Of a stretch of 14,223 nucleotides of DNA, positions 1 to 8,598 are shown one piece after another. Positions within the stretch are counted from its first letter, which is position 1. Each line of letters begins with the position of its first letter. The translations under genes and the position numbers were made by a program. The DNA is from a virus. The notes under the pieces were generated by a model that saw only the letters and a program-made list of their open reading frames with translations, had not been told where the DNA came from and did no database searches. The stretch lies in the UHGV virus genome UHGV-0099328; one strand, 5' to 3'.

Positions 1-155
1 GCTCCGGATGAATATGATGATCTCATATCAGGAACTTGTTCGCACCTTCCTTAGCGCGACCTCCTGCCACCCGCTTTCACGAAGGTCATGTGTAGAAGGC
101 CGCAGCGTAACTATCACTGATGAATTCAGGATAGCCAGTGGCTACGGCTCAGTTA

Positions 156-231
156 TGGTGCTGTTTAACGGACTTGAACCGCTACCCATTCGCTTACAAG
201 GCGACCGCTCTACCATTGGAGCTAAAACAGC
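156..231 (-). tRNA. tRNA-Thr (anticodon UGU), phage-encoded
   Basis: Reverse complement folds as a canonical cloverleaf: acceptor GCTGTTT/AAACAGC 7/7 bp, D-stem GCTC/GAGC, anticodon loop CTTGTAA with U33 and anticodon TGT, T-stem AGCGG/CCGTT, T-loop TTCAAGT, discriminator A and encoded CCA. Anticodon stem has one mismatch. Isotype is from hand folding only. Confidence 0.6.
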
Positions 232-236
232 ATGTT

Positions 237-311
237 TGGCGGGACAGCGTGGACTCGAACCACGATAAGAAGGTTAACAGCCTTCCGTAATCACCTTTAT
301 ACGACTGACCC
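237..311 (-). tRNA. tRNA-Asn (anticodon GUU), phage-encoded
   Basis: Reverse complement gives a cloverleaf: anticodon stem GAAGG/CCTTC 5/5 bp, loop CTGTTAA (anticodon GTT), T-stem CGTGG/CCACG with T-loop TTCGAGT, 3' CCA encoded. Anticodon loop and T-arm resemble E. coli tRNA-Asn as recalled. Acceptor stem has one T-T mismatch and the D-stem is only 3 bp, so function is uncertain. Confidence 0.55.
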
Positions 312-374
312 AAATAAAAAAAGCCACCGTTGCAACTTAAGAGTCACTAACGGCAGCTTACCTTCTAATTATGG

Positions 375-893
375 CTAAATGGATAATTGCATGTCAAGGC
401 TTTTAACAGCAACATGCTTAACTTTCTCAACACGTTTACGCATTTTGAAAGCATTTTGCATTGGCTGGTACAAAACAAATAACGATGCTTTCAGGATGTC
501 GTCAATTTCGTTTCTACAGGTTGCCAGTGAAGGTTTTCTCCATCCCTCGCCACCACGTCCACACATCTTGCGTGGCTTTGCAGTCGCGTGATAGTAGGAT
601 GCAATTGCTCGCTTAGATGAACCATGAGCGTAGTAGCTGAGGAGGATGCCAAAGGCTTTCTTGTCAATGCACATGACGGAATCGACGACCTGAGAAATCA
701 ACATTCCATCATCATCATTGCACATTGGCCTTGTCATAACTCTTCCCGGCTCTACGCTCTCCATGAACTTCGCTATTACGCTGCTCATGCGCTTTTCCAG
801 ACGACCTGAATAAACCCATGCGCCCCACAGTTCAAGCCAGCCATTCAGCCACTCATGCTGTTCTTTGGTGAGGTTTAGTTCTCTTATGCCCAC
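375..893 (-). CDS. Q: Late-gene antitermination protein Q (non-lambda Q family, resembling DLP12 QuuD / phage 82 type)
   Basis: 172-aa ORF immediately downstream of NinI with 10-nt overlap. Motifs WGAW and [11 protein letters not shown] match the QuuD-type Q proteins as recalled and do not match lambda Q. Position after the nin genes is the canonical Q position. Confidence 0.75.
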
Positions 894-7692: not shown

Positions 7693-8598
7693 ATGTCGAT
7701 TAACAGCAATAGCGAATCCCTGCATCAAATGCAGCTTTTCCCTGTAGTAGAGGTTGTTTCTGATGATATTCCTATGGGCGTTCTCAATGATGGAACTCCT
7801 TACCTAACTCTCTACGGTCTCGCAAAGTTATGCGGCATTGATGACACGCCACTGAGGGTGTTCACATCAAACTGGAACACAGAGAAAAACAAACCCAGAG
7901 GTCAAAAAGTAGCTGCGTATTTAGCTGAGAAAGGGTTTCATAACGTCGAAAAGCTATACACTCGCGTTTTAAATAGCTCAAACGTGGAAACTCATGCTTA
8001 TCCTGACTATGTTTGCATGGCTATCCTCCGTTACTACGCTCTAGATGCCACCAATTTTGATAGGTCAGTCGCAATAGGTAATTTTGTTCGCTTGGCTGAG
8101 TACACGCTTAAGCGAATGATTTATGAAAAGTCAAATTACAACCCAAATGCTTCAATAGATATCTCATTCGAGAACTATAGAGCAAGGATTAAGCTAAACG
8201 ATCAGATACCGACAACTCATTTTGCAGTATTCAGAGAGATAGCTGACATTGCCATGAACCTGATCGGAGGAGGATTCCCAATGGATGACACCACATCTTT
8301 GGATGGAAGTGTTGGAATTCACTGGGGAAAGTATTGGACAGCTAATGGGCTATCTGAGAAATTCGGGGAAAGGGTGCAGTACCCACATTTATTCCCCGAA
8401 AATTACAGGCAGTCAGCTGCAAATAAGCATATAACAGCTTGGATTTATCCTATTGAGGCACTTGGCGTGTTCAGAAAATGGCTACACGATAATTACGCAA
8501 TGGAAAAACTGCCAAATTACCTTGGGAACAAAAAGATTAGTAACGCCTCCGAGCTATTAGAGTCGATAAAAAAACCAGCACTCCCAAATAAGCATTGA
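7693..8598 (+). CDS. Hypothetical protein in the rexA-rexB position; candidate prophage defence / superinfection-exclusion factor
   Basis: 301-aa ORF immediately downstream of and co-oriented with cI, followed by an intrinsic terminator and then oL/pL. It is unrelated to RexA or RexB and looks AT-rich compared with cI. The N-terminal segment PMGVLNDGTPYLTLYGLAKLCGIDDTP loosely resembles KilA-N/Bro-N DNA-binding domains (from memory). Confidence 0.7.
   Translation: MSINSNSESLHQMQLFPVVEVVSDDIPMGVLNDGTPYLTLYGLAKLCGIDDTPLRVFTSNWNTEKNKPRGQKVAAYLAEKGFHNVEKLYTRVLNSSNVETHAYPDYVCMAILRYYALDATNFDRSVAIGNFVRLAEYTLKRMIYEKSNYNPNASIDISFENYRARIKLNDQIPTTHFAVFREIADIAMNLIGGGFPMDDTTSLDGSVGIHWGKYWTANGLSEKFGERVQYPHLFPENYRQSAANKHITAWIYPIEALGVFRKWLHDNYAMEKLPNYLGNKKISNASELLESIKKPALPNKH

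Follow-up and report, generated by a model that had tools for sequence, protein, structure and literature searches.

A phage-21/Sf6-type tRNA-Asn/tRNA-Thr module behind the presumably Q-controlled late terminator of the virus genome UHGV-0099328

[quoted passage not shown] They lie on the minus strand, near the start of the 14,223-base stretch of DNA that we analyzed as a whole (the window, to which all positions refer). The pair is already known, being a long-described and routinely annotated module of the phage-21/Sf6 type. We favor, with a little more than even confidence, the explanation that both are functional tRNAs in the late leader of a lambdoid prophage and that they supply codon demand of the late genes; the observations that carry this reading are the integrity of the two genes, their conservation and covariation, and the order of promoter, terminator and tRNAs. 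The pair offers a clean example of tRNA genes behind a Q-controlled terminator, and a test case for whether temperate coliphages keep tRNAs for codon demand or for escape from tRNA cutting by PARIS or HepS.

ARAGORN called exactly two tRNA genes in the entire window: tRNA-Thr(UGU) at 156-231 (minus strand, 76 nt) and tRNA-Asn(GUU) at 237-311 (minus strand, 75 nt, discriminator G73). Both encode their CCA end, both were also found with the Rfam model, and a 5-nt spacer (AACAU, 232-236, minus strand) separates them. Searched with Infernal against RF00005, tRNA-Thr scored 61.2 bits (E 1.6e-12) and tRNA-Asn 55.3 bits (E 6.4e-11), compared with a curated gathering score of 29 bits, and each gene aligned to model positions 1-71 of 71. 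The original prediction had folded a Thr-UGU and an Asn-GUU tRNA by hand at 156-311 and had proposed tRNAscan-SE or ARAGORN as a check; ARAGORN, which we ran, returned both loci at the same coordinates.

The anatomy of the two genes agrees with these calls. The tRNA-Thr has G1-C72, C2-G71 and A73, and an anticodon arm with C31-G39 and the segment U36AAGCG41; the corresponding features of tRNA-Asn are G31-C39 and U36AACCU41. Both anticodon loops are 7 nt long with U33 and a purine at position 37 (CUUGUAA in tRNA-Thr, CUGUUAA in tRNA-Asn), and the T-loops, GGTTCAAGTCC and GGTTCGAGTCC, are of the GGTTCRA type. Residues of identity type are present in both sequences, namely G34U35U36 and G73 in tRNA-Asn and G1-C72, C2-G71 and G35U36 in tRNA-Thr, which we take to be the E. 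coli identity elements of these tRNAs. Separately, the D-loop of tRNA-Thr (window 214-218) has a C at position 14, where nearly all tRNAs have A; relatives have C, U or G at this position and never A, and the next two residues (AA) are kept. Such a pattern points to a bulged base or to a D-loop of unusual geometry.

Three oppositions in the predicted stems do not form standard pairs: U4.U69 in the acceptor stem of tRNA-Asn, U13.U22 in the same tRNA, and G27.A43 in tRNA-Thr. The acceptor-stem mismatch had been noticed from the letters alone, and it exists, as U4.U69; it had been read as a sign that the Asn gene may be a degenerate copy. We analyzed an alignment of 22 distinct versions of the module, drawn from IMG/VR and from phage records. 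Standard pairs filled 92.3% of the pair cells, both sides changed in 14 of 42 pairs, and none of 500 shuffles reached the observed values; when pairing partners were slid along the alignment as a control, the paired share fell to 30-50%. Compensatory changes were found in four of the seven acceptor pairs of tRNA-Thr and, in tRNA-Asn, at 6:67, 7:66, 27:43, 28:42 and 29:41. The bodies of the tRNAs are conserved among relatives and the 5-nt spacer is variable. U4.U69 itself is unpaired in 22 of 22 versions, and the loci L020, L040 and L085 have the same acceptor stem, with its mismatch, on an Asn body of clearly distinct sequence. Because U4.U69 is constant in all versions while neighboring pairs and the anticodon stem show compensatory change, the idea of a degenerate Asn copy is contradicted; judged from this alignment, we take U4.U69, U13.U22 and G27.A43 to be conserved traits and not decay.

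These data bear directly on the view that at least one of the two genes is a degraded pseudo-tRNA or what remains of an attachment site, to which we give next to no credence. The U4.U69 opposition, together with G27.A43 and the non-A position 14 of tRNA-Thr, could be read in its favor, as could the broken phage/host chimeric Thr genes that occur in some relatives. However, both genes score well above threshold across the full-length model, and the odd pairs are family-wide rather than scattered, in the very stems that show compensatory changes. An origin of the 3' halves as attachment-site remnants had also been considered at the outset; the module lies in the middle of the prophage, between Q and the lysis genes and far from any integrase (about 16 kb away in a related prophage), and with both genes complete this candidate was ruled out.

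Upstream of the pair lies an open reading frame (375-893, minus strand) that encodes a late antiterminator Q of the phage-21 type (Pfam PF06530, Phage_antitermQ, 90.1 bits), and its homologues carry the Q annotation in Sf6, BTP1 and E. coli prophages; the placement of the tRNAs directly downstream of Q, as first proposed, thus stands. A promoter scan detected the late promoter PR' at 368-397 (minus strand; TTGACA-18 nt-CATAAT, 11 of 12 consensus matches). It overlaps the 3' end of Q and aligns with the annotated PR' of Sf6, and by homology the late transcript would start near position 361. RNA folding revealed a tR'-type intrinsic terminator at 316-357 (minus strand), an extended GC-rich hairpin and, after it, seven consecutive U, the last of them 4 nt upstream of tRNA-Asn. 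The fold of 312-372 (minus strand) has an energy of -21.5 kcal/mol (z -4.6), and none of 200 shuffled sequences was as stable. A simple terminator scan of positions 1-1000 reported none, as its rules miss the hairpin and U-run that folding reveals. The promoter scan found no second promoter ahead of the tRNAs, only PR' and a weak site within Q. The homologous stretch of Sf6 is annotated with PR', qut and the late leader terminator tR', and that of phage 21 is a short transcript ('aRNA') ending exactly at the start of tRNA-Asn. Because the module sits after Q, PR' and a strong terminator, late and Q-dependent expression of the tRNAs is to be expected.

Two observations on the upstream flank of the family were made in passing. 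A Q of the window type was missing within 800 nt upstream in 13 of 57 family loci. In the IMG/VR loci L077, L087 and L098 an open reading frame of 163-170 aa, which by eye resembles a homing endonuclease of the HNH/AP2 type, ends 54-193 nt before tRNA-Asn.

Upstream of Q we found a NinI-like phosphatase, NinG, a DnaB-type helicase, an O-like initiator and cII, and the cI repressor and bet/exo recombination genes lie on the strand opposite to Q; the early region is lambda-like. Directly downstream of cI, a 301-aa open reading frame (7693-8598, plus strand) corresponds to the abortive-infection defence protein BstA (PADLOC BstA, E 1.3e-105; PHROG 6287, E 6e-133), in the slot that rexAB occupies in lambda. 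In BTP1, bstA forms one operon with cI (PMC7067206).

The 156-nt module is 97.4% identical to its counterparts in phages 21, Sf6, SfI and BTP1 and about 97% identical to those of HK446 and others; in 58 phage records the match extends over at least 80% of the module. The stretch of Q plus tRNAs was present in about 135 of 5,426 complete E. coli genomes, where PGAP annotates tRNA-Asn and tRNA-Thr, and the Sf6 record labels both tRNAs 'similar to phage 21'. Among species-representative genomes, the Asn core was found in Escherichia sp., E. albertii and Shimwellia. RNA sequencing of BTP1 lysogens has shown both tRNA genes to be expressed, with the late operon following directly (PMC7067206).

Several relatives have an altered second tRNA. 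In ST64T (L128:601-677), and identically in phage L, the acceptor and T arms of Thr type are retained; the gene was not recognized by ARAGORN, and by hand folding its loop would hold C33 instead of U33. This tRNA has been reported as Leu-UAA by tRNAscan (PMC8022706). The IMG/VR loci L025 and L087 and phage JLK-2012 (L139:2963-3038) have a chimeric Thr gene in which a phage 5' half is joined to a 3' half resembling host thrU. The host part extends from the anticodon arm on, the acceptor stem is unpaired, and ARAGORN makes no call. By their sequence, these chimeras look like products of recombination between a prophage tRNA and chromosomal thrU. The exact tRNA-Asn was also found on two short contigs placed in MAGs of Segatella copri (L133) and Collinsella (L136), that is, in bins of Bacteroidota and Actinomycetota; L133 has a lysis cassette of the S21/R21 type after tRNA-Asn, and the placement of both contigs is probably mis-binning.

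Downstream of the pair, the window holds only the beginning of the late leader and then an insertion sequence. Positions 51-155 (minus strand) are the first 105 nt of the leader that lies between tRNA-Thr and the holin gene, assigned by identity to E. coli NS-NP030, and positions 1-50 (minus strand) are the 50-bp end of an IS5-family insertion sequence including its inverted repeat, GGAAGGTGCGAA. The latter was assigned by identity to repeats: a stretch 100% identical to these 50 bp occurs in more than 2,000 E. coli records, from chromosomes and plasmids, and reaches 43 copies in a single genome. E. coli ER1709 has it next to a coding sequence named 'IS5-like element ISKpn26 family transposase' by PGAP, in an element of 1,196 bp with a 4-bp target duplication. 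The transposase gene is expected about 19 nt past the edge of the window, co-oriented with late transcription. Homology of the window to phages and to E. coli begins abruptly at position 51, and lambda and many lambdoid phage records likewise match from this position. E. coli NS-NP030 is 100% identical over window 51-420 and has the empty site, ...GATGTTG TTAG CGCGACC... Because NS-NP030 is uninterrupted there and homology starts at 51, we assign TTAG at 51-54 as the 4-bp target site; compared with NS-NP030, the insertion point lies 105 nt past tRNA-Thr and 137 nt short of the holin ATG. A 32-nt pattern spanning the IS/leader junction had no match in IMG/VR contigs or species-representative genomes, and window 1-420 in one piece was absent from the 5,426 complete E. 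coli genomes. The insertion may have disconnected the tRNA module from the late genes in UHGV-0099328. We infer that it need not be polar on these genes, since Q-modified polymerase resists terminators.

The nature of this flank bears on a further question. The original prediction likened the arrangement to that of Stx-converting phages, in which tRNAs flank late-expressed cargo, and expected any cargo just outside the window. The first half of the comparison holds, as the tRNAs do follow Q in the late leader; a flank of toxin-like cargo is not supported, and the window edge and the sequence just past it belong to the end of an IS5-family element instead. That the tRNAs mark and flank a slot for cargo (morons), in the manner of Stx phages, with a toxin or other late cargo just beyond the window, is in our judgment highly improbable. 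The position would be right for such a slot, after Q, PR' and tR' and ahead of the lysis genes, and two of 49 relatives with enough flanking sequence do have cargo (tciA/tciB) there: phage JLK-2012 and one related locus combine the same tRNA-Asn with a chimeric tRNA-Thr, a tRNA-Gly, tciA, tciB and more accessory genes. Against this, 44 of the 49 go directly to the lysis cassette, with the holin starting 16-245 nt past tRNA-Thr. An E. coli prophage with an identical module has a lambda-family holin 242 nt past tRNA-Thr, followed by endolysin and spanin, and the window itself has the normal pre-holin leader for 105 nt until the IS5-family end runs off the edge. For the relatives, Stx-like cargo was rejected on the strength of the 44 direct lysis cassettes. 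Because its neighbor is an insertion sequence, the tRNA pair, real but ordinary, gives no reason to expect a toxin gene nearby.

In the explanation that we favor, the pair would work as follows, with Q-dependence and processing extrapolated from the biology of phage 21, lambda and Sf6. Transcription would initiate at PR' and, without Q, would stop at the tR' hairpin, 4 nt ahead of tRNA-Asn. RNA polymerase modified by Q would read through and produce a precursor comprising leader, tRNA-Asn, tRNA-Thr and the mRNA for lysis and virion proteins. Host RNase P and 3' trimming would then release both tRNAs, with CCA already encoded, so that they would appear just in the phase in which most phage protein is produced. 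Once charged, as we presume they are, they would raise the decoding capacity for Thr ACA/ACG and Asn AAC/AAU, and the presumed benefit to fitness would come mainly from the demand of late genes for Thr codons read by minor host tRNAs only. At a later time the IS5-family element has inserted 105 nt past tRNA-Thr and parted the module from what lies downstream.

Because the window is without late genes, codon demand was assessed in two complete relatives, and 40 K-12 genes (14,676 codons) served as the host sample. The late genes of the lambda-like E. coli prophage whose module is identical use ACG at 26.5 per 1000 codons versus 12.1 in the host, the largest absolute excess of any codon, and ACA at 10.0 versus 5.6 per 1000, so that ACA plus ACG is twofold up. 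A tRNA-Thr(UGU) with cmo5U34 reads ACA and ACG, two codons for which the host itself has only single-copy tRNAs. Asn codons were not enriched in this prophage (36.8 late versus 36.3 host per 1000), and host tRNA-Asn is multi-copy and not obviously limiting. CGG (4.2-fold), AGG and AGA have higher ratios of late to host usage in the same prophage, yet they are without a phage tRNA. The late genes of the P22-like phage SPN9CC use ACA at 15.1 and Asn codons at 48.3 per 1000; of the 25 Asn codons in its coat gene, 24 are AAC. The same point on codon use has been made for phage L (PMC8022706). A comparison of the anticodons with late codon use, as initially suggested, therefore comes out in favor of the Thr gene (ACA plus ACG) and not of the Asn gene: codon demand is a good explanation for Thr and a poor one for Asn.

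The genes that follow the module differ widely among relatives. It precedes at least four lysis cassettes (lambda-S, S21/R21 and two of P22 type) and the virion genes of both siphoviruses (lambda-like) and podoviruses (P22-like). With such varied cassettes and virion sets behind it, the module is not tuned to one set of late genes, and any benefit must be generic. The position of the tRNAs between the terminated leader and the first late gene in many phage backgrounds would also fit a role chiefly as punctuation in RNA processing, whereby cleavage by RNase P detaches the Q-loading leader and sets the 5' end and stability of the late mRNA. We consider such a role quite improbable. The anticodons and identity elements are conserved beyond what punctuation alone requires. 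We also count against it that lambda has no tRNAs at the late-leader site. P22 likewise manages without tRNAs there (PMC8022706).

Another account is counter-defence. The pair would then serve mainly to keep late translation going in defended hosts, the chief candidate for the defence being the PARIS effector AriB, with the Thr-tRNA nuclease HepS perhaps as another. This account is possible, but we think it on balance unlikely. AriB targets three host tRNAs, among them Thr(UGU) and Asn(GUU), with Lys as the main target; in tRNA-Lys the change of U39 to A abolishes cleavage by AriB and that of A41 to C lowers it, and T5 variants of the three tRNAs neutralize PARIS (PMC12409363). PARIS also protects against lambda (PMC9122126). 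HepS is an anticodon nuclease of Gifsy-1 that is triggered by a J tail protein of lambda type and cuts Thr tRNAs including UGU (PMC13043305), and the trigger, the lambda J tail protein, is made late.

Beyond sharing anticodons with two AriB-targeted host tRNAs, the phage pair differs from them at the relevant positions. The host arms read U36AAUC followed by A41 in tRNA-Thr and by C41 in tRNA-Asn, and those of the window read UAAGC followed by G and UAACC followed by U. Thus, U39 is lost and position 41 is changed in both tRNAs (G39/G41 in Thr, C39/U41 in Asn); the D-loops are, in addition, without the host U16 context. In T5, the Thr variant used for co-expression in the rescue experiments has UAAGC followed by A and so shares UAAGC with the window tRNA-Thr, and C31-G39, in place of the A31-U39 of the host, is common to the tRNA-Thr(UGU) of P1, N4, T5 and the window. 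P1 (an Asn-Thr tandem) and N4 (Asn-Ser-Thr) hold both species in very small tRNA sets.

Several points weigh against counter-defence as the main role. The module is without tRNA-Lys(UUU), and all combinations reported to rescue included the T5 Lys variant (PMC12409363). No tRNA-Lys was found in the window, and only two tRNAs are annotated in the related complete prophage region and in the phages that we examined. As 35-43% of all positions differ from the host isoacceptors, the changes at 39 and 41 are weak evidence, and the tRNA-Asn of P1 retains the susceptible UAAUCA. The Asn and Thr genes of P1 and N4 are mutually similar, and the window tRNA-Thr is about 80% identical to theirs, so the Thr gene that they share, and the co-occurrence of both species in P1 and N4, may be inherited from a common ancestor rather than independently selected. 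For HepS, recognition seems to be through the anticodon itself, and this is the same in the phage copy. Tallies of anticodon stems over 120 diverse Asn-Thr tandems from IMG/VR were set aside, their hosts being not identified, and we found no paper connecting lambdoid late-leader tRNAs to PARIS. It is a shade more doubtful still that the module represents, as its anticodon arms might suggest, a portable late counter-defence of lambdoid and P22-like phages, with Asn and Thr tRNAs resistant to AriB and possibly buffering the loss of Thr tRNAs to HepS. If true, late translation would be partly shielded in hosts with tRNA nucleases borne by satellites or prophages, and this would explain why it is Asn and Thr, and not rare-codon tRNAs, that recur among the very few tRNAs of 21-like phages, P1 and N4.

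Among known systems, the window stands closest to phages 21, Sf6, SfI, BTP1 and HK446 and to many E. coli prophages. All share the order of Asn then Thr and the 5-nt length of the spacer, after Q, PR' and tR'; BTP1 moreover has bstA beside cI together with the same tRNA module. The window differs from the phage 21/Sf6 type by a few point differences, among them a compensated acceptor pair 5:68 in tRNA-Thr (U5-A68 versus G5-C68 in most relatives), and by the IS5-family element that breaks the leader 105 nt downstream. Phage L and ST64T have the same leader of Q, PR' and tR' and an identical tRNA-Asn, but the D and anticodon arms of their second tRNA are replaced. The likeness to Stx phages is smaller. 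In 933W, the tRNA genes downstream of Q/PR' and upstream of stx2 are presumably ileZ, argN and argO (Ile/Arg), and we assume that its Q is of a different type from that of the window and that toxin cargo follows its tRNAs. In contrast to this arrangement, the tRNA species of the window are Asn(GUU) and Thr(UGU) and not Ile/Arg for rare codons, and accessory or toxin genes of the Stx-phage kind are absent between the tRNAs and the lysis genes both in 44 of the 49 relatives and in the E. coli prophage whose module is identical. T5 has the same two anticodons, with U39 lost in both tRNAs and UAAGC in the Thr arm, but the window genes are only 51-59% identical to those of T5, are not accompanied by tRNA-Lys, and belong to a temperate phage in which their expression would be late and Q-dependent. 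Asn then Thr is a recurring unit in otherwise unrelated coliphages: a pair identical to that of P1 (L137) was found in eight IMG/VR loci and near-identical pairs in a few more, and N4 (L138) has both genes in its cluster. The P1 tandem and the N4 cluster resemble the window in having Asn(GUU) before Thr(UGU), with a tRNA-Thr of similar sequence and C31-G39, whereas their tRNA-Asn is visibly divergent from that of the window, with another acceptor stem and D arm, and stands in another genomic context.
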